This document shows, piece after piece, positions 7,451-16,565 of a stretch of DNA of 64,000 bases. Numbering within the stretch: the stretch's first letter is position 1; each line of letters begins with the position of its first letter. The position numbers were made by a program, and so were the translations under genes. This stretch comes from Desulfurivibrionaceae bacterium (GTDB lineage Bacteria > Desulfobacterota > Desulfobulbia > Desulfobulbales > Desulfurivibrionaceae), in assembly GCA_041675585.1 (NCBI GenBank), contig JBAYTO010000003.1, positions 21,396-85,395 on the forward strand. Reading direction: 5' to 3'. The notes under the pieces were generated by a model. The model was not told the origin of the DNA. It did no database searches and saw only the letters and a list, made by a program, of their open reading frames with translations.

Positions 7451-7507
7451 GTAGGCGCAAGCTTGCTCGCGTTTTTTTACTGATTCGCGAGCAAGCTCAC
7501 TCCTCCC
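7451..7507. repeat. REP doublet (REPIN-like), class A
   Basis: GTAGGCGCAAGCTTGCTCGCG (7451-7471) and inverted CGCGAGCAAGCTCACTCCTCCC (7486-7507); same core as the REPs flanking the RAYT gene. Confidence 0.85.
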
Positions 7508-8499: not shown

Positions 8500-8528
8500 T
8501 TGACATGATCATCCCGGTTAAGTACACT
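8500..8528 (+). promoter_or_regulatory. Putative sigma70 promoter of the pilus cluster
   Basis: TTGACA (8500-8505), 17-nt spacer, TACACT (8523-8528) upstream of the mshQ-like gene. Confidence 0.55.
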
Positions 8529-8577: not shown

Positions 8578-11500
8578 ATGAGCTCAATTACTAAGACCCT
8601 TCCGACACAGAATAATCCCGCGAAACCAGCTGTGTTGCTAGCCGCTGCTCCGGTCAAAATATGGGGAGTGTCCCTGTTTTTATTGGCGTTTGAAACTCGC
8701 CTGCCGCAAATAAGTCCCCAAAAACCACCAATCGTTGACACCCCTGAAAGAATATGGGGAGTGTCCCTGTTTTTTCTCCTGTTTTTTCTGTTTTTCGCTA
8801 TCTTGACCAGCACTCACGTGTTGGCCGCAACTTACTCGTTGCCTGCGGGGATCGGCTCAGGCCCATTTGCCAATTGTTCCCTGACGTCCGGCACAACCTA
8901 TACCTGTAGCGGTAGCGGGAGCGGGAGCGGGGATATAAATCTTGCAAACAACGACATCCTCAATTTCACCGCGTCAATGACACTGTTAGCGACAGACGAC
9001 TTCACCGCAGGGAATACCGTATCCGTAAACAGCAACGGGAACACCGTCACGATTTCTACAAGTGACGACATTACCTTTGGAAACAATTTTGTCGGGACAA
9101 TTAATTGGCAGGCGGGCGATACATTCAATGTTGGTAACGGCGCCACAATCACGGGAAATATTACTGCAGGTGACGATATTAACATCGGAAACAATGTCAC
9201 GCTCAGCGGGAATATGACTTCGGGTGACGACATTTCTGTCGGCAATAATGGCAACATTACGGGCAATGTCGTTGCCGCTGACGAATTGACCCTCCCCGCC
9301 AACACATTTGTCACGGGGAATTGCACACCGACACACAGCCAATGCACGGGTGGGACGCCAGCGGTTATCGCCGAATACCGATTCGACGAATGCTCCTGGA
9401 CCAGCGGGACAAGCGGCGCAGTCATCGATTCAACCGGCAGTTATTCAGGCACCCCCTACAGCACGAACACGGTCTCCGGCGGCGTGGTCAATCGTGCCGC
9501 CGATCTCTCCGCCACAGGCACATCCGACTACATCCACTGGCCGATCTCACTCTTAAACGGGCGCACCAATTTTACCATCAGCTTGTGGTTCAAGACCTCG
9601 AGCCACCCGGACCAACAGGAAATCCTCCACGGTCTGGGTAGCAGTTCGGGAGACGATGAGATAGAAATTTATCTCATCAACACCACGGGGATTCGGGTAA
9701 ACATTCGCGACGAGGGCAACAATTACACTGCTCCTTCGTCCTTTACCAACGGCGCCTGGCATCACCTGGCGGTCACCCGTTCCGGCGCCAGCGTCTGCGT
9801 CTATCTCGACTCGACCGTGCTTGCCTGCAACACCCGCAGCTCAAATGCCTTGTCGATCACCGACAGCAACGCCCTGTTGACTGGCCAGGAGCAGGACTCC
9901 TTCGGCGGCGGTTTCACCAGCAGCCAGGCGCTGGAAGCGCAGCTCGACGAGTTCAAGGTTTTTGCTGCCGCTCTTTCCGCCAGCTCGATCAGCAGCATCT
10001 ATGCCAACGAACTGGCTGGCAACAACTGGGACGGCTCTTCGCGCAGCAACCCCTGTCTTATTACCTCCATGGCCGAATACCGTTTCGACGAAGCCTCCTG
10101 GAACGGCACAAGCGGCGAAGTCGCCGACAGCTCCGGTAACGGCTATGCCGGCACCGCAGCCAGCCTATCCGCCACCAAACCGACCACCGCCGACACAACC
10201 CCGGCGATTGCCGGCAACCCCGGCACCTGCCGTTACGGCGTATTCACCAGGGCCAACAAAGATTATGTCGCCTTGCCCGCCTCCTTCCCTAATCTGGGCA
10301 GCACTGGCCAAGCCTTTACCATTACCGCCTGGCTCAGGACCACCAACAATACCCAGCCCGGCCAGCGCATCCTCATTGACGACCAATCCAACAGCACCGG
10401 CTACGGCTTCAGCCTGGGCGACGGTGGCACAGGCAGATTGCGTTTTTATTCCCGTGGCACTCCCTCCCGGCTCATTCTCGACACCGACAATGTGAATGTG
10501 ATCGCCAACAATACCTGGTACTTCGTGGCTGCGGTGATCGATGTCCCCAACAAGATCAAACGAATTTACGCCTTCAACAGCGCCGGAACCTTGTTGACCA
10601 GTGTGAGCAGCGCGGCCTGGACCGAGGCTTCCTTCGGTTCGGACAGCGGTATCGCCTCCATTGGCGGAGAAACTAACGCCTCCGGGGAAAACAGCAGCAG
10701 CTTCGGTTTCTCCGGCAATCTGGACGAGGTAAATGTATTCACCAGCGCCTTAAGTCAGAGCGACCTTGCCACCATCCTGGCCCGCACCCATCCCTGCACG
10801 GCAACCGTCAATCTCGACCATATCCGCCTCGAACACGACGGTGCCGGCCTGACCTGCATGCCGGAAACCATCACCGTCAAGGCCTGCGCCGTTGCAGACT
10901 GCACCTCGTACTACACCGATACGGTCACCGCCACGCTCTCGCCATCCGGTTGGGTGGGCGGAGACGCCATTACCTTCAGCAGCGGGACGACCACGGCACA
11001 GTTGCGCCACACGACGGCGGAAACGGTGACCCTCGGCGGCTCGGTCACCTCGCCCGGCGCGACCAATTCGACCCGCTGTTTCAACGGTGGCACCGAGTCC
11101 TGCTCGCTGCCCTTTTCCAATGCCGGCTTCATCATCGCTGCGCCCGATCTTATCGCCAACAAGCCGGGTACCGTGACGATCCAGGCGGTTAAACTGGCGG
11201 ACAACGGCATTACCTGTGCTCCGGCCTTCACTGGTTCGCGCACGGTGAACTTCTGGTCGGGATACGAGAATCCAAATACGGGCACGAAGCAGGTAAGCCT
11301 TGGAGGAACACCCATTTCCACGAGCACGTCCGGCACTGGGATCTCCCTAAACTTCAACGCCACTGCCACGGCAAGCATTGCCGTCAGTTATGCCGACGCC
11401 GGACAGATGCGCCTAAATGCGAGCTACACTGAGAGTGGCACCGAGGCTGGATTGGTATTGGAGGGTAACGATCTCTTCGTCTCCCGGCCTGCGGGCCTTT

Positions 11501-12729
11501 GTGTTTTCAGTGGCGATACTGATGCGGCCTGCCCAAGCAACGACCACACCTGTTCGGTTTTCAAAAAGGCAGGGGAAGATTTCAACCTGACGGTCAGGGG
11601 CGTAGCCTGGGAAGTTGATAGCGACACCGATATGTGCAGCGACAATGTGGTGACGCCGAACTACCGGCAGGTCGGGATCGCCCTTGGTCACAGCCTGGTT
11701 GCTCCGAGCGGCGGCTCAGGTGGCAGCCTCGGCCTGACAACCTTAAATCTGGCAGCCGCCGACAACGGCAGCAATACCGTCACCCAGACCATTTCCGAGG
11801 TGGGAGTGTTCAGGTTTACTGCCACCCCACCTACCAACGGCTACTTCACCACCTACACTGTGCCAGCCGGCACCAGTGCGAGCATTGGCCGCTTCATCCC
11901 CGACCATTTCGCCATCTCCCCGAGCGGGATAAACGAAGGCTGCGTTGCCGGGAACTTCACTTATTTCGGCCAGGACGGCTTCAGCACCGCCTTTACCATT
12001 ACCGCCCAGAACACCGGCAACGCCACCACCGCCAACTATACCGGCAACTTTGCCAAGCTTGGTCTGACCGATTGGAATAACTTCGTCTTCACCGCCACCG
12101 GCCTGCCGACCTCGCCGCTTTCGATCCTCGCTGCAAGCGCCAGCACCCTGCCAAGCGGCAGCTGGGCAAACGGGGTGGCCGCTGTTGTGGCCAAACACCA
12201 GGCCAGCCGCCCTACCTCGCCGGTGGCTCCCGCCAGTGTCATGGTCAGCGCCAAGCCGGTGGACAGCGATAGTGTCACTCCGGCCTCGGCCACTGCGGTG
12301 CAGTCGGCAAGCACCGCGCTCCGTTATGGCCGGGCTGTAGTGCAAAATGCCTATGGCCCGGAAAGGGAAACGCACAAAATGCGGCTCTTGACCCAGTATT
12401 ACAACGGCTCTTCCTTTATCAACAACAGCGATGACTCCTGTACCATCTACAATGCTGCCAGCCTTACCTGTAACAACCTTACCGGCCCCATTGCCTGTAG
12501 CGATGTGACCCCAAGCGGCACAGGGATCGGCCACGGCCAGTATTTTCTCCTTACCCCGCTTTCGACAAAGATTGGCCCCCTCCTCTACACCCTGACCGTT
12601 ACCCCCTGGCTGCAATACGAATGGGACAACGCCGGTAACGATTACGATGAAAACCCTTTTGCCCGGGCCAACTTCGGCATCTATCGCGGCAACGACCGGA
12701 TCATCAACTGGCGGGAGATCATCCGCTGA
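8578..12729 (+). CDS. MshQ-like large pilus adhesin: beta-helix-like repeats, two LamG/concanavalin-like domains, C-terminal MshQ (DUF6701-like) region
   Basis: Two YRFDE...W.G...LDE LamG-like modules; DHIRLEH, IGRFIPDHF, ALRYGR..NAYGPE and ANFGIYRGNDRIINWRE resemble MshQ C-termini; followed by minor pilins. Start uncertain (8578 or GTG 8761). Confidence 0.8.
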   Translation: MSSITKTLPTQNNPAKPAVLLAAAPVKIWGVSLFLLAFETRLPQISPQKPPIVDTPERIWGVSLFFLLFFLFFAILTSTHVLAATYSLPAGIGSGPFANCSLTSGTTYTCSGSGSGSGDINLANNDILNFTASMTLLATDDFTAGNTVSVNSNGNTVTISTSDDITFGNNFVGTINWQAGDTFNVGNGATITGNITAGDDINIGNNVTLSGNMTSGDDISVGNNGNITGNVVAADELTLPANTFVTGNCTPTHSQCTGGTPAVIAEYRFDECSWTSGTSGAVIDSTGSYSGTPYSTNTVSGGVVNRAADLSATGTSDYIHWPISLLNGRTNFTISLWFKTSSHPDQQEILHGLGSSSGDDEIEIYLINTTGIRVNIRDEGNNYTAPSSFTNGAWHHLAVTRSGASVCVYLDSTVLACNTRSSNALSITDSNALLTGQEQDSFGGGFTSSQALEAQLDEFKVFAAALSASSISSIYANELAGNNWDGSSRSNPCLITSMAEYRFDEASWNGTSGEVADSSGNGYAGTAASLSATKPTTADTTPAIAGNPGTCRYGVFTRANKDYVALPASFPNLGSTGQAFTITAWLRTTNNTQPGQRILIDDQSNSTGYGFSLGDGGTGRLRFYSRGTPSRLILDTDNVNVIANNTWYFVAAVIDVPNKIKRIYAFNSAGTLLTSVSSAAWTEASFGSDSGIASIGGETNASGENSSSFGFSGNLDEVNVFTSALSQSDLATILARTHPCTATVNLDHIRLEHDGAGLTCMPETITVKACAVADCTSYYTDTVTATLSPSGWVGGDAITFSSGTTTAQLRHTTAETVTLGGSVTSPGATNSTRCFNGGTESCSLPFSNAGFIIAAPDLIANKPGTVTIQAVKLADNGITCAPAFTGSRTVNFWSGYENPNTGTKQVSLGGTPISTSTSGTGISLNFNATATASIAVSYADAGQMRLNASYTESGTEAGLVLEGNDLFVSRPAGLCVFSGDTDAACPSNDHTCSVFKKAGEDFNLTVRGVAWEVDSDTDMCSDNVVTPNYRQVGIALGHSLVAPSGGSGGSLGLTTLNLAAADNGSNTVTQTISEVGVFRFTATPPTNGYFTTYTVPAGTSASIGRFIPDHFAISPSGINEGCVAGNFTYFGQDGFSTAFTITAQNTGNATTANYTGNFAKLGLTDWNNFVFTATGLPTSPLSILAASASTLPSGSWANGVAAVVAKHQASRPTSPVAPASVMVSAKPVDSDSVTPASATAVQSASTALRYGRAVVQNAYGPERETHKMRLLTQYYNGSSFINNSDDSCTIYNAASLTCNNLTGPIACSDVTPSGTGIGHGQYFLLTPLSTKIGPLLYTLTVTPWLQYEWDNAGNDYDENPFARANFGIYRGNDRIINWREIIR
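8658..8774. repeat. Two exact 24-bp direct repeats AATATGGGGAGTGTCCCTGTTTTT
   Basis: Copies at 8658-8681 and 8751-8774. Confidence 0.9.
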
Positions 12730-12732
12730 GCC

Positions 12733-13209
12733 ATGACTATAATCCCTTATTTATACGACACAAACCGGCAGCGCGGCTTCACCCTGATTGAGCTGATCAT
12801 GATCATTATCCTTCTCGGGATTCTTTCCGCCACCATCTACGCCCGCTGGCCAGTAGGCATGGAAGAAGAGGCGGCGGCAAAAGAATTCAAACGGGCGGTG
12901 CGTTATGCCCAACACAAGGCCATGACCAGAGAATACACCACGGCTGGAGCTGCCTGGGGGATTATGGTTAATGCCGATTCCAGCTATACCGTGCAGCGGG
13001 CAAGCGGAGTCGAACAGGCAGAGGCCGGATATGTGAACCGTTGCCTTAACTCCGACAATCCGCCCCCCTGCGATATCCCGATTTCCACTGGCTCTCTATA
13101 TTTCAACGGTCTTGGAGAACCATTGAGTGGAGGTGCTTCTTTCACCATCGGCGTCGCCCCCGACAGCAAAACCGTTACGATAAGCCCGGCCACCGGCTAT
13201 GTGGAATAG
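12733..13209 (+). CDS. Minor type IV pilin (MshC-like)
   Basis: Class III signal RG|FTLIELIM. Confidence 0.8.
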   Translation: MTIIPYLYDTNRQRGFTLIELIMIIILLGILSATIYARWPVGMEEEAAAKEFKRAVRYAQHKAMTREYTTAGAAWGIMVNADSSYTVQRASGVEQAEAGYVNRCLNSDNPPPCDIPISTGSLYFNGLGEPLSGGASFTIGVAPDSKTVTISPATGYVE

Positions 13210-13210
13210 C

Positions 13211-13852
13211 ATGGAACAAAACACCAGGAAAAATGCCGATAGTTGCGGCTTCACCCTTATGGAGATCATCATCACCATTGTCATCCTCGGCTCGGTTGCC
13301 GGGATTCTGGTGCCGTTCTTCAACGCCGTCACCCACAGCCCGGACCCGGTGATCCGGGAACGGGCCATCTCTCTTGGCCAGGCCATGATGGACGAGATCA
13401 TGGCCAAGCGCTGGGATGAGAATACCCCCATGGGCGGCGGGCCTCTGATTACCAGTGAAACTCTGGCCGACGATGGCTCCACATGCACGACTCCACCCAC
13501 CCCTTGCACCGGAAATCGCCTCAACTGTTTTGTCTGCCGGAATCCAGGCTACATACCTGGAACGGCAAGCACCGGATTCAACGATGGCGAATTACGGATA
13601 GACTATGATGATGTGGACGATTACCACGGCCTCAACGAAACCGGCACCTTCACCGACCAAAACGGCAACAGCTTCGCCCTGACCAACTACACCCGCCAGG
13701 TGGCAGTGCTCTACATCGCCAGCTCTGCCAGCCCCATTGACCAAAACACCTTGGCCGCGTCCGGCACCACCGACACCAAGCTGGTGGTGGTAACCGTGAC
13801 CTCGCCCCTGGGGGAAACCTTTTATTTTGTGGCCGTGGCCTGCAACCTATGA
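13211..13852 (+). CDS. Minor type IV pilin (MshD-like)
   Basis: CG|FTLMEII signal; RAISLGQAMMDEI, DENTP and YDDVDDYHG segments resemble MshD. Confidence 0.8.
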   Translation: MEQNTRKNADSCGFTLMEIIITIVILGSVAGILVPFFNAVTHSPDPVIRERAISLGQAMMDEIMAKRWDENTPMGGGPLITSETLADDGSTCTTPPTPCTGNRLNCFVCRNPGYIPGTASTGFNDGELRIDYDDVDDYHGLNETGTFTDQNGNSFALTNYTRQVAVLYIASSASPIDQNTLAASGTTDTKLVVVTVTSPLGETFYFVAVACNL

Positions 13853-14475
13853 AATCACCCCATAAAACAGACCTTCGTCTCCATCTTTCAATGGCATGCG
13901 CAAATAGCATGGTTCGCGAGCTTGCTCGCGAACCCAACTGCGCGGATTACCGTAGGAGCGAGCTTGCTCGCGAACCCGTCCCAAATAAAGCGAACAAAAA
14001 TTCTCATCCTGATCACCCCTTTCATGGCAGCAATCTTCGCAAAAGAAGATACTCCGAATCAGGCCGTCCATACCTGGTAACATCGGTTACCAACCACCGG
14101 CAAAAATTGTTTGCAACCTGGCAAGCAGGCCGCCCGCTTGCTTTAGAGTTCAACTCTCCCTGGCTGCAAAACCGGGCGGAAACCCTCGCCTGGGTAATCA
14201 TGCCCGATCATTTTCATTGGCTTATCTCTTTGCAGGATTATGGTGACCTGCCGGAAATCATGCAAAGGTCGAAATCCCGTTCCGCCATTGCCTTGAATTT
14301 GCTCCAAGGACAAGGGGGAAGGCAGGTATGGCAAAAGGGATATTATGACCACGCCGTACGCGCCGAAGAAGATATTGTTGCTCTGGCCAGGTATGTCGTC
14401 GCCAACCCCATCCGGGCCAGGCTGGTTGCAAAACTCAATGATTATCCCCTGTGGGATGCGGTTTGGTTGCCATGA
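13849..14475 (+). mobile_element. REP-associated tyrosine transposase (RAYT/TnpA-REP, Y1 HUH family)
   Basis: LAWVIMPDHFHWL (HUH), VWQKGYYDHAVR and RYVVANP (catalytic Tyr), DYPLWDAVWL C-terminus; flanked on both sides by GTAG REPs. Confidence 0.92.
13909..13975. repeat. REP cluster left of RAYT core
   Basis: Palindrome GTTCGCGAGCTTGCTCGCGAAC (13912-13933) and GTAGGAGCGAGCTTGCTCGCGA (13952-13973). Confidence 0.9.
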
Positions 14476-15416
14476 TTTATTTACGGAACAAAAGAATTCG
14501 CGAGCAAGCTCACTCCTACAACTGCGCGGAGGACTGTAGGAGCGAGCTTGCTCGCGAACCATACCCATGCACGAAAAACCGGAGGAAATATTTTCTAATA
14601 ACCCACCTCCTTCGTGGAAGACAAAACGGTTTCACCCTGATCGAACTGATCGTGGTCATTGTGCTACTTGGCATCGTTGGGGCCATGGGAGCCGACTTCA
14701 TCAGTCAGGCCTTCAAGGGTTTTTTCGATAGCGATGTCCGCATGGAGATGTATGAAGAAGGCAAGACGGCCTTGGTGCGGATGGAGCGGGAGATTCATAT
14801 CGCCCTGCCAAATGCGGTGCAAGAACCCTTCGACTCAGATGCAGATACCGTTGATGACACCATCAGCATCGGGGTAATAGATGAAAACGCCATGGCCGGG
14901 GTATTTGGCCAATACACAGAGGCTCATCCCAGCGGTGACTTTACGATCACCGACCGCACCGCGGCCCTGCAAGTAAGCAACCCACTGGTTTCCATTTACA
15001 ATACCTCCTGGGCCGATTTTTCCGACAGCAGCCGCATCTATCGGGTGACTTCCGCCTCCGGTGTCAATCCCATGATCCTGAGCGAGACCATCGGCCCGGC
15101 CTCGCCCTATGGCCGCTATTACGCAGTCCGCTCCGAAGCGGTTCGCTTTTCCGTGGCCAGTGGAGTTCTATCCCGGTCAACGACTACAGTGACTGAGGGA
15201 AGCGCCTTGGATGAGACCGATTTTGCAAACAACCAACAAACTCTAGCCAAAAATGTCCAGCCAGCAGTTGACCCATCAAATGCCCCGCTGCCCTATTTCA
15301 CTTACGAACCCGGCACCTCAACCCGCAACAGCGTGGTGGTCATCAATTTCGCCATCAGCCGCAACGAGGAAACGGTTAACTTCCACAAGGAGATCCAGGT
15401 CCGCAATGTGCCGTGA
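14472..15416 (+). CDS. Minor type IV pilin (MshO-like)
   Basis: NG|FTLIELIVVIVLLGIVG signal; LVRMEREIHIALPN and FHKEIQVRNVP resemble MshO; the nearest in-frame ATG is 14472, overlapping the RAYT stop. Confidence 0.8.
   Translation: MIYLRNKRIREQAHSYNCAEDCRSELAREPYPCTKNRRKYFLITHLLRGRQNGFTLIELIVVIVLLGIVGAMGADFISQAFKGFFDSDVRMEMYEEGKTALVRMEREIHIALPNAVQEPFDSDADTVDDTISIGVIDENAMAGVFGQYTEAHPSGDFTITDRTAALQVSNPLVSIYNTSWADFSDSSRIYRVTSASGVNPMILSETIGPASPYGRYYAVRSEAVRFSVASGVLSRSTTTVTEGSALDETDFANNQQTLAKNVQPAVDPSNAPLPYFTYEPGTSTRNSVVVINFAISRNEETVNFHKEIQVRNVP
14498..14562. repeat. REP pair right of RAYT
   Basis: Inverted TCGCGAGCAAGCTCACTCCTAC (14498-14519) and GTAGGAGCGAGCTTGCTCGCGA (14536-14557); spacer CAACTGCGCGGA is shared with the left cluster. 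Confidence 0.9.
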
Positions 15417-15816
15417 ACCGAGTCGCATATTCACCCCCGGCGCGGGGGAACGGGGCATCGCCCTTATCACCGCCATTTTCGCCATTGTCATTCTCGGGCT
15501 GTTCGGCCTGCTCATCGCCCGTTACACCGTGACCACCCAAACCTCTTCGGTCGAAGATTACCTGTGGGCCCAGGCCCTGTACAGCGCCGAGTCCACCATG
15601 CGATTGAATATCCTCGGGGATGATGACGGCGGGGGAATTACTGCGCCTGTAAATCCCACGGTGGGGGGGATAAAAACAGAATTGCTGGAAGTTATCCCTG
15701 GTACTCCCTTTGCCTTCTCTGCTCCAGGCACATATGTAACATTACAGGTCCGGGGCTTTCACGATATAGGAGTCAGCCGCACCGTGGAGGCAAAATATCT
15801 CCTGGCCTCACCGTAA
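15406..15816 (+). CDS. Minor pilin (MshP/PilX-like)
   Basis: RG|IALITAIFAIV (no Glu5, as in PilX/MshP types); ALYSAES motif. Confidence 0.7.
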   Translation: MCREPSRIFTPGAGERGIALITAIFAIVILGLFGLLIARYTVTTQTSSVEDYLWAQALYSAESTMRLNILGDDDGGGITAPVNPTVGGIKTELLEVIPGTPFAFSAPGTYVTLQVRGFHDIGVSRTVEAKYLLASP

Positions 15817-15874
15817 GTTTTTTCACGACTCATCAAGACTTTAGCCGCATAGTGCAATAGACTTCGTAAAGTCT

Positions 15875-15902
15875 TTGACACACGCATAATCTATGCTATA
15901 AG
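15875..15902 (+). promoter_or_regulatory. Putative sigma70 promoter (extended -10)
   Basis: TTGACA 15875-15880, 16-nt spacer ending TGC, TATAAG 15897-15902, in an AT-rich gap. Confidence 0.5.
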
Positions 15903-15968
15903 GAAATAATTTTATTGGTAAAATTTAAAGATTTAATTAAGCACTCCAACCACCGGGGGAGGTGTTCC

Positions 15969-16565
15969 GTGCCCAGACTTGACAATAAAGGCTTCACCCT
16001 CATCGAGCTGATCATCGTCATCATTCTTCTCGGTCTCATCTCCGCCACCGCGATCCCCTACTATCTCAACATCCAGAAAGAAGCGAAGATCTCCGTGGTC
16101 AAGGGCAAGCTCGCCGCCATTCGGGGCGGACTTGAACTGGCCCACGCCAAGATTCTTGCCTCCGGGGTCAACACCGGCCCGGATGGCAACAACCCGGACT
16201 GGCCCACCCTGGAAGAGGTGCAATTCAACGAACTGCGCCTCAGTACCCGTCCCGCCGCCCTGATCGGGTTGCGCATTGTCCGCAGCGACTTTTACTCCAC
16301 CGAACAAAACAAGGCCCTGCCGCTTTGCAACCTGCCTGATCAACCGCCGGGCATGTCCGCCAGCCCCTCCGGCGTTTCCGCAAAATCCCAATTAGAGGCG
16401 CTGGCAAACCCCAGACTGGCGGATGAATCCACGGGCTGGGCTTACTATCCCGGCAATGAACGCGATAGCGCCGGCCGGGGAGTCGACGCCATCTTTTATG
16501 TGAATGATGACCGGACCCTCACCGACAATGTTGACTCCGCCGACAGACGGCCTTCTGAGTGGTAA
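15969..16565 (+). CDS. Type IV pilin (MshB/MshA-like)
   Basis: KG|FTLIELIIVIILLGLISATAIP; GGGAGG RBS before GTG 15969. Confidence 0.8.
   Translation: MPRLDNKGFTLIELIIVIILLGLISATAIPYYLNIQKEAKISVVKGKLAAIRGGLELAHAKILASGVNTGPDGNNPDWPTLEEVQFNELRLSTRPAALIGLRIVRSDFYSTEQNKALPLCNLPDQPPGMSASPSGVSAKSQLEALANPRLADESTGWAYYPGNERDSAGRGVDAIFYVNDDRTLTDNVDSADRRPSEW

Follow-up and report, generated by a model that had tools for sequence, protein, structure and literature searches.

A REP-associated tyrosine transposase (RAYT) gene, flanked by repetitive extragenic palindromic (REP) sequences, lies within the leader-coding region of the minor pilin gene mshO, in a mannose-sensitive haemagglutinin (MSHA)-type pilus operon of a Desulfurivibrionaceae bacterium. 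The sequence analysed, referred to as the window, is a stretch of 64,000 nt from contig JBAYTO010000003.1 of assembly GCA_041675585.1, and positions are given within it. The window genome (G000) is a metagenome-assembled draft of 82 contigs, the source of which is a landfill-metagenome run. The cassette has the anatomy of a Pseudomonas-type GTAG REP-RAYT-REP unit. It is likely that the RAYT has taken over the mshO start codon and that MshO is reinitiated at the RAYT stop, with a long, partly REP-encoded leader in front that is cleaved off; the discarded leader would be a safe harbour for the cassette, and the loss of proximal start codons would have entrenched it. The features of the cassette are as follows.

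13849..14475, + strand: RAYT reading frame, 208 aa, with its core at about 14020-14472
13849..13908, + strand: ancestral mshO start and leader-codon remnant (MKSPHKTDL...), now the 5′ end of the RAYT frame
13911..13934, + strand: left REP 1, headless (without GTAG), a perfect palindrome GGTTCGCGAGC-TT-GCTCGCGAACC, with ATG 13909 at its foot
13952..13976, + strand: left REP 2, GTAGGAGCGAGCTTGCTCGCGAA(CC), the REP itself at 13952-13974, in-frame reading RSELARE
14209..14217, + strand: HUH motif H121-F-H123, in MPDHFHW
14392..14394, + strand: Tyr182, the putative catalytic tyrosine, in ARYVVANP
14472..14627, + strand: predicted present-day mshO leader, ATG 14472 and 51 codons, running through the right REP doublet up to ...RGRQNG at the cleavage site
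14497..14519, - strand: right REP 1, one mismatch, in-frame reading REQAHSY
14536..14560, + strand: right REP 2, exact, the REP itself at 14536-14558, reading RSELARE
14567..14731, + strand: out-of-frame ORF (open reading frame) of 54 codons from ATGCAC, directly 3′ of the last REP, in the wrong frame for GFTLIEL

The location of the cassette is established by comparison with congeners. In 14 congeneric species the mshD-mshO junction is free of RAYT, the mshO ATG adjoins the mshD stop or overlaps it, and MshO has a leader of 10-17 residues. In the empty-site genomes G010 and G018, the mshO ATG is on the mshD stop, with a shared junction of ...GCCTGCAAC(A/C)TATGAAA... in the context ...GCCTGCAACATATGAAAA...; G010 reads MKTKDLAQHAKKQSGFTLIEL and the window, at 13849, reads ...GCCTGCAACCTATGAAAT..., its ATG overlapping the mshD stop (TGA 13850-13852) as ATGA. 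The window MKSPHKTDL... resembles MKTKDL... of G010, window MshO is closest to the G010 orthologue, with 74-75 % identity, and the C-terminus of MshD, ...FVAVACN(I/L/F) before the stop, is kept among congeners. Because the empty-site congeners place the mshO ATG at the same spot and in the same context, ATG 13849 is, on this comparison, the ancestral mshO start codon. The RAYT has therefore apparently captured the mshO initiation site, and the cassette, rather than separating two genes, is within the part of mshO that encodes the leader. The far end of the old leader, ...RGRQNG/FTLIEL (the slash marks the cleavage site), is about 780 nt downstream, past the cassette. A previous reading made from the letters of the window alone (the sequence-only reading) had described a RAYT/REP cassette between mshD and mshO, to be checked by comparing the junction in relatives. 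The RAYT and its flanking REPs stand, the placement is revised to the 5′ end of the ancestral mshO, and the comparison yielded, beside the empty sites, loci occupied at the same site in five further lineages.

At the right-hand side, ATG 14472 overlaps the RAYT stop (TGA 14473-14475), again as ATGA, and is in frame with GFTLIEL at 14628. Both overlaps are exactly as the sequence-only reading had given them, and its statement that both frames pass through the REP palindromes without a stop is also borne out, the other two frames having 1-5 stops. It had further reported that no ATG is present between the left REPs and the conserved RAYT N-terminus (FHGSNLRK); the only ATGs of the RAYT frame in the window are 13849, 13891, and 13909, and this interval also lacks GTG, TTG, and near-cognate start codons.

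The REP is a 23 nt GTAG-type sequence, GTAGGAGCGAGCTTGCTCGCGAA, with four matches in the window versus none expected in shuffled sequence (here and below, REP matches allow up to three mismatches unless stated). Cognate GTAG-type REPs flank the RAYT on both sides, with two copies on each, and flank it likewise in five other lineages; the RAYT or mshO ORF runs in frame through each of the four copies of the cassette, none being extragenic. Left REP 1 participates in an mRNA hairpin of -43.8 kcal/mol (z = -5.5), and right REPs 1 and 2 together make a hairpin with 24 nt arms (RNA -46.6 kcal/mol, z = -6.8) resembling a REP doublet forming a hairpin (REPIN). A GTAG head, an imperfect palindrome, and inverted pairing are found together in the doublets at 14497-14558 and 7451-7506 and twice on contig C55. 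The perfect 13 bp inverted repeat that had been proposed to bound 13909-14562 is exact (ATGGTTCGCGAGC at 13909-13921 and GCTCGCGAACCAT at 14550-14562); it consists only of the outer REP stems plus ATGG/CCAT, and this extension is absent from the other lineages.

The same layout is found in other lineages. The five closest RAYT homologues (61-72 % identical) among 5.8 billion proteins were traced to their contigs, and all five are in the order mshD-REPs-RAYT-REPs-mshO, with the identical 23 nt REP, on Desulfobulbales contigs. These are from Desulfobulbaceae UBA2213, three metagenome lineages, and GCA_042563835; with the window they make up the six lineages compared here, the other loci being L022, L026, L119, L122, and L123. 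A metagenome scan returned only one further close locus, L124, of the same lineage as L119. UBA2213 shares msh synteny with the window contig at 34-66 % identity, with no synteny beyond the cluster; its best DusB match is 58 %, possibly a paralogue, and the transketolase gene (tkt) is absent from that bin. The overlap of its list of relatives with family f17 suggests that UBA2213 belongs to a different family.

Each of the six lineages has a start codon that overlaps the stop of the RAYT, as ATGA or, in L123, as TGATG, and that is joined to GFT by an open frame. The spacers between the RAYT stop and GFT are 111, 111, 117, 156, 180, and at least 252 nt long, each divisible by three, and the linking frame is free of stops in each lineage whereas the other frames have stops. 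Translation of the reverse REP gives REQA(R/H)SY, FASKLAPT, or SRASSLL in different lineages, so that all three frames are used, which argues for selection on openness and not on the peptide; from these differences it also follows that indels shifted the frame locally and were then compensated. L122 has tandem REP arrays on both sides of the RAYT (228-394 and 905-1119). The left array has one reverse copy and three direct copies with a 51 nt period, the right one has at least five with a 48 nt period, and both are read in frame, bringing the mshO leader to at least 84 residues. In its initial 60 nt the L122 contig looks chimeric, a duplicate of the RAYT N-terminus being joined to the mshD 3′ end. 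With these periods and all of the spacers being multiples of three, REP expansions preserve the frame, and a change in REP copy number acting as a phase switch is ruled out.

The start codons available differ between the lineages. The most divergent, L123, has its own RAYT ATG and a proximal ATGCAC start for mshO, and even so its upstream frame is open; L122 has only the RAYT ATG; and the window, L022, L026, and L119 are without both proximal starts, L119 having an in-frame TTG after the REPs for RAYT. From L123, through L122, to the other four there is thus an apparent evolutionary series of start-codon loss. The ATG at 14567 in the window is homologous in position to the in-frame ATGCAC start of L123; as an mshO start it is ruled out, being in the wrong frame, and it is probably a relic start codon that has been lost as the mshO start. 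Five of the six lineages have a RAYT frame that is already open at the mshD stop. No other in-frame mshO start is present before GFT in the window, L022, L026, or L119, and since mshO is under purifying selection, it is likely that MshO is translated from the ATG overlapping the RAYT stop. The coupling of the RAYT to mshD and mshO that the sequence-only reading put forward is thus supported by the layout and open frames in six diverged lineages, by the four that have no alternative mshO start, and by purifying selection on both genes.

For RAYT, the ratio of non-synonymous to synonymous substitutions (dN/dS) is 0.11-0.14 where measurable, dS between the window and the others being about 1.6-1.7 or saturated. 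For mshO it is 0.17-0.25, which is also the range obtained when two species with empty sites are compared. Values of about 0.12 for RAYT and about 0.2 for mshO argue that both proteins are made. Between L022 and L119, RAYT is 82 % and MshO 78 % identical; between the window and L022 the identities are 71 and 68 %, and between the window and L123 they are 62 and 51 %. Identities of MshC, MshD, and MshP follow broadly the same ranking as RAYT. With RAYT identities that parallel those of the neighbouring msh genes, and with synonymous sites at saturation, the acquisition was not recent. The arrangement seems to be old, to have diverged together with the msh genes in several lineages of the Desulfobulbales, and to have been lost in most congeners. 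That the 23 nt REPs are letter-identical despite saturated divergence points to RAYT constraint or concerted turnover.

The RAYT frame matches the NCBIfam equivalog model NF047646 (REP_Tyr_transpos) with 136.4 bits, where the cut-off is 80, over residues 64-202, and Pfam PF01797 (Y1_Tnp) at 5.7e-9 (36.6 bits, cut-off 23). An alignment with TnpA-REP of PDB entry 4ER8 spans residues 65-201, from a weak phmmer match (E = 3e-8, 37 bits); it places the HUH motif against LPEHMHC and Tyr182 against Y115, reportedly the catalytic residue of 4ER8 in the 2012 work of Messing et al. H121-F-H123 and R181-Y182 are invariant among 17 homologues. Residues 1 to about 60 are an N-terminal extension foreign to the family, made up of the mshO leader remnant and REP-encoded residues; in the AlphaFold model, pLDDT (predicted local distance difference test) is below 50 at residues 1-66 and about 85-90 in the core. 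By tblastn the RAYT is single-copy in the genome, which also has two distant Y1 genes. An autonomous IS200/IS605 insertion sequence was considered and is ruled out by the one copy, the same locus in diverged lineages, and a score of 24 with the IS200 equivalog model, below its cut-off of 55.

Taken together, the following course of expression is proposed, in which MshO depends on the RAYT for its translation. The pilin genes would be transcribed as one polycistronic mRNA, and ribosomes ending mshD would reinitiate at the overlapping AUG 13849, the old mshO start. Some 57 codons would be read through the left REP hairpin, giving a RAYT whose N-terminal 60 or so residues are a disordered tail. 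At the RAYT stop, reinitiation on the overlapping AUG 14472 would lead, after 52 codons through the right REP doublet, to a pre-MshO with an unusually long leader, partly REP-encoded, which prepilin peptidase would cut after Gly-1 (RGRQNG/FTLIEL). As the leader is cleaved off, mature MshO would be the same as in insert-free relatives, and because it is discarded, the leader would be a permissive harbour. Once the proximal starts were lost, translation of RAYT would be a relay needed by mshO, entrenching the cassette. The RAYT, still under selection, presumably maintains a small dispersed REPIN population of nine copies.

In support of the leader as a harbour, in-frame palindromes are also present in other pilin leaders. 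REPs are in frame in the mshC-like leader, with three copies in L119 and L124 (L119:2425-2559 and L124:1491-1625) and one in L022 (L022:3870-3892); an example of such a leader is MAKPEGASLLAKITGNEDNSAGEILREQARSYRNTRCVAGKGRSELARENHSPHASGFTLIEL. A second family of palindromes, GTCATTCCGGCG(A/C)AAGCCGGAATCCAG, unrelated to the REP, is repeated 53-55 times in each of the genomes G005 and G007, frequently in inverted pairs with a 45 nt spacing. In G007 (L011) and G005 (L012) it is also in frame within the same mshO leader, which there has at least 60 residues. There are seven copies of it in the window genome (e.g. G000:C1:73495-73521) and none in G010. The presence of palindromes of two families in these leaders suggests that the leader is a permissive harbour.

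The genome-wide count of REP copies that the sequence-only reading had called for gives nine in the window genome (10 at four mismatches), on three contigs and including doublets. UBA2213 (G401) has 26, most of them exact or near-exact and spread over many contigs, two Pseudomonas genomes have 337 and 711, and most congeners have none. G014, of the same genus, has 12, and neither mshO nor RAYT was found in its draft; its REP-rich msh region may have failed to assemble, and the cassette may be present. One copy of the dispersed doublet is in the window.

7451..7506, no strand assigned: dispersed, partly decayed REP doublet (REPIN), extragenic, in the spacer between a transketolase-like (tkt) and a dusB-like gene

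A doublet is present in the same tkt-dusB spacer of G022, a congener without this RAYT (G022:C33:21819-21869), and therefore the REPIN predates the split between the two. G031, from a different family of the order, has no RAYT in its mshD-mshO spacer but a clean REP doublet (L210, G031:C59:4995-5068), 11 nt 5′ of the mshO gene's own ATG; this doublet may have been left behind when a RAYT was lost, or be a REPIN inserted independently. The REP counts and the shared REPIN fit the published behaviour of RAYTs, which are single-copy, stay at a fixed locus, and leave REPINs to decay after their loss (PMC5581495; 10.1101/2021.07.10.451892).

The operon into which the cassette is inserted is on the + strand at 8578-16565. 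It is an MSHA-type pilus structural operon because it is marked by an mshQ-like DUF6701/LamG protein; the names mshD and mshO are given by gene order beside this gene, and profile searches of the window proteins matched no MshD- or MshO-specific family model.

8500..8528, + strand: candidate operon promoter, sigma-70-like TTGACA-17-TACACT, just 5′ of the mshQ-like gene, a consensus match only
8578..12729, + strand: mshQ-like giant protein, 1383 aa (DUF6701, PF20419, 8.2e-135; LamG/pentaxin, PF13385, 4e-34)
12733..13209, + strand: GspH/mshC-like minor prepilin, its leader of normal, short length, MTIIPYLYDTNRQRG/FTLIEL
13199..13852, + strand: mshD-like minor prepilin, stop TGA 13850-13852
14628..15416, + strand: mature mshO-like minor pilin, beginning G/FTLIELIVV (mshO ORF 14451/14472-15416)
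15915..16565, + strand: further prepilin with an N_methyl motif

Apart from this candidate promoter, no + strand promoter-like match precedes the pilin genes, and shuffled sequence gives at least as many matches as this region does. The N_methyl model PF07963 matches the mshO ORF (1.9e-8), mshD (2.2e-5), and the mshC-like gene (1.7e-7), TIGR02532 also gives a match, and these pilins carry the class III prepilin signal of Gly-1, Phe+1, Glu+5, and a hydrophobic helix. A prepilin peptidase gene is present in the window genome (PF01478, 88 bits, G000:C9:20588-20914). At the 5′ end of the mshQ-like gene, an identical 17 nt hairpin-plus-T-run (ATGGGGAGTGTCCCTGT TTTT) occurs twice, 93 nt apart (8661-8677 and 8754-8770), and encodes a duplicated hydrophobic segment, ...IWGVSLF(L/F)L....

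Other explanations for the two ATGA overlaps were considered. The RAYT may initiate independently at ATG 13909 or 13891, and mshO through an unrecognised start or an internal promoter, the overlaps being incidental. The public gene call does start the RAYT at 13909, for a product of 188 aa, L122 and L123 have RAYTs with a proximal ATG and L119 its TTG, and there is a GGAGGA at 14581-14586. However, ATG 13909 has no Shine-Dalgarno sequence and is at the base of the left REP hairpin; an mshO start after the GGAGGA is ruled out, the only in-frame candidate being ATA 14598; three other lineages are without any start codon between the REPs and GFT; and the overlap with the RAYT stop recurs in six out of six lineages. 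A consensus search found no + strand promoter-like site inside the cassette, which is weak evidence. Independent initiation is accordingly considered unlikely. It is doubtful, if somewhat less so, that the coupling has itself become functional, the RAYT ORF and REP hairpins acting as a fixed translational relay and attenuator of the MSHA minor-pilin operon. Were this true, RAYT would be made only when the pilus genes are translated, tying REPIN mobilisation on single-stranded DNA to pilus activity; selection on MshO and MshP would shield the RAYT from loss, an addiction through translational coupling; and hairpin mobile elements would have in prepilin leaders a general niche and perhaps a point of control.

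The remaining alternatives concern the origin and state of the cassette. The sequence-only reading had suggested a possible horizontal acquisition; on this view the RAYT would be a fairly recent gain from a gammaproteobacterium, and its co-expression with the pilus would be an adaptive link between REP mobilisation and attachment or pilin dosage. In its favour, the 23 nt REP is identical to the RAYT-flanking REPs of Pseudomonas canadensis and other Pseudomonadota, the RAYT has a GC content of 52 % versus 57 % for the window, and it is absent from 24 congeners. In the RAYT tree, the msh-embedded clade (support 100) groups with Pseudomonas/Thermithiobacillus-type RAYTs using the same REP, apart from other Desulfobulbales RAYTs, which are 41-51 % identical and elsewhere in the tree. 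Yet the deep nodes are weak (80-88), Pseudomonas RAYTs are only 46-59 % identical to that of the window, and the closest relatives are all at the same msh site in Desulfobulbales, with identities that rank like those of MshC, MshD, MshO, and MshP and with saturated dS; the G031 doublet and the REPIN in common with G022 also point to old residence and loss. A recent origin is therefore rejected as very unlikely. The resemblance to Pseudomonas RAYTs and REPs that had been noted holds for the REP sequence and the clade, as a deep link only; a deep cross-phylum transfer of a Pseudomonas-type RAYT/REP, in either direction, is plausible. That the cassette is a dead scar, with RAYT, mshO, or both unexpressed and the frames open by chance, is hardly credible. 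REPs are stop-free in five of six frames; with REPs fixed, a frame would be open by chance in one lineage with a probability of 0.14 on the right and 0.18 on the left (with a further 1/3 each for the correct frame); and the REP population is very small; against this, there are the dN/dS values, the intact catalytic motifs, the frames preserved through indels in six lineages, the 48 and 51 nt tandem periods, and the 26 REPs in UBA2213. A Pseudomonas-like fragment chimerically joined into a Desulfobulbales contig by assembly or binning would be conceivable in a draft of this kind, REPs being abundant in the co-sampled metagenomes. This can be practically dismissed, as an independent Logan assembly of the source run has no differences over 13600-14656, with even depth, and the same junctions are present in five other lineages from different samples; the identical assembly likewise rules out frameshift or assembly error as the source of the frames.

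Several points weigh against capture of the mshO start with reinitiation behind a long leader. The coupling and the 52-residue leader are deduced from sequence and comparison only, and a search of RNA runs found none that contains this stretch. Type IV prepilin leaders are short and positively charged, from a few to about 30 residues, so that the leader from ATG 14472 is not a short one, and we know of no characterised type IV pilin with a documented leader above about 30 residues. REPs have few stops in any frame and, in a single lineage, the open frames are not very improbable; the six lineages are of common ancestry and not fully independent replicates. The RAYT ATGs of L122 and L123 and the proximal mshO ATG of L123 indicate that not every lineage is bound to the coupling. 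In the MshO tree the occupied loci do not form one group, and the window pairs with the empty-site G010 (support 92/91); this topology is compatible both with ancestry and repeated in-frame loss and with recombinational exchange of the mshD-RAYT-mshO segment. Lastly, a population of nine REPs does not demonstrate RAYT activity in this genome.

If the MshO start has been captured as proposed, what is new is a transposase gene without a start of its own, inside a discarded pilin leader, that is a link in a stop-start chain and is conserved across diverged lineages. It would show a route to the entrenchment of a domesticated mobile-element gene, in which damage to the frame would be polar on an essential pilus subunit. 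The lineages would also be a natural test of the leader length that prepilin peptidase accepts, from 52 to at least 84 residues. For annotation, there is the caveat that gene callers start the RAYT at 13909 and give mshO odd starts. The Pseudomonas-type REP/RAYT, with its 23 nt REP unchanged, is extended into the Desulfobulbales, which bears on the strength of RAYT constraint on REPs. In the literature searched, no paper was found that links a RAYT or REPIN with pilins.

Of the known systems, the closest is the REPIN-RAYT system of Pseudomonas, with GTAG-1 REPs and Group 2/3 RAYTs (PMC3116915; PMC5581495). In both there is a single-copy RAYT with cognate GTAG REPs and dispersed doublets, at one locus, with vertical-like co-divergence and purifying selection, and RAYT loss goes with few or no REPs. 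The differences are in the Desulfobulbales host, with 9-26 REPs versus 337-711, and in the placement of RAYT and REPs within a coding region, without an own start and chained by ATGA into a pilin operon. RAYTs and REPINs have been described as extragenic residents (10.1101/2021.07.10.451892), and the window RAYT departs from this habit of the family, which is not a strict criterion, of extragenic location and an own start. E. coli TnpA-REP and its REPtron (4ER8; PMC3479197) likewise have a REP-flanked gene of the Y1 HUH fold family in which the HUH motif and the C-terminal-helix tyrosine align, the match being weak, whereas the window RAYT has the N-terminal extension of about 60 residues that is foreign to the family and partly REP-encoded.

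Intragenic, in-frame REPs have already been described and are tolerated especially at dispensable N-termini (PMC3733652), and in-frame palindromes within genes are known, as cited there, from the Rickettsia palindromic elements (Ogata et al. 2000). The palindromes in the mshO and mshC-like leaders are alike in this respect; in contrast to the intragenic REPs, here the transposase gene too is within the host 5′ coding region, and the host gene is apparently split into a captured start and a reinitiated body. The explanation by misannotated starts given in PMC3733652 is excluded here because of the comparative data. Stop-start overlaps at both junctions of the cassette are also in keeping with the ATGA/TGATG-coupled minor-pilin operons of type IV pili and type II secretion: gene calls on related contigs overlap between mshC-like and mshD and between mshO and mshP, and empty-site relatives couple mshD to mshO directly. 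In this locus, unlike those operons, a foreign enzyme ORF is interposed as an extra link.

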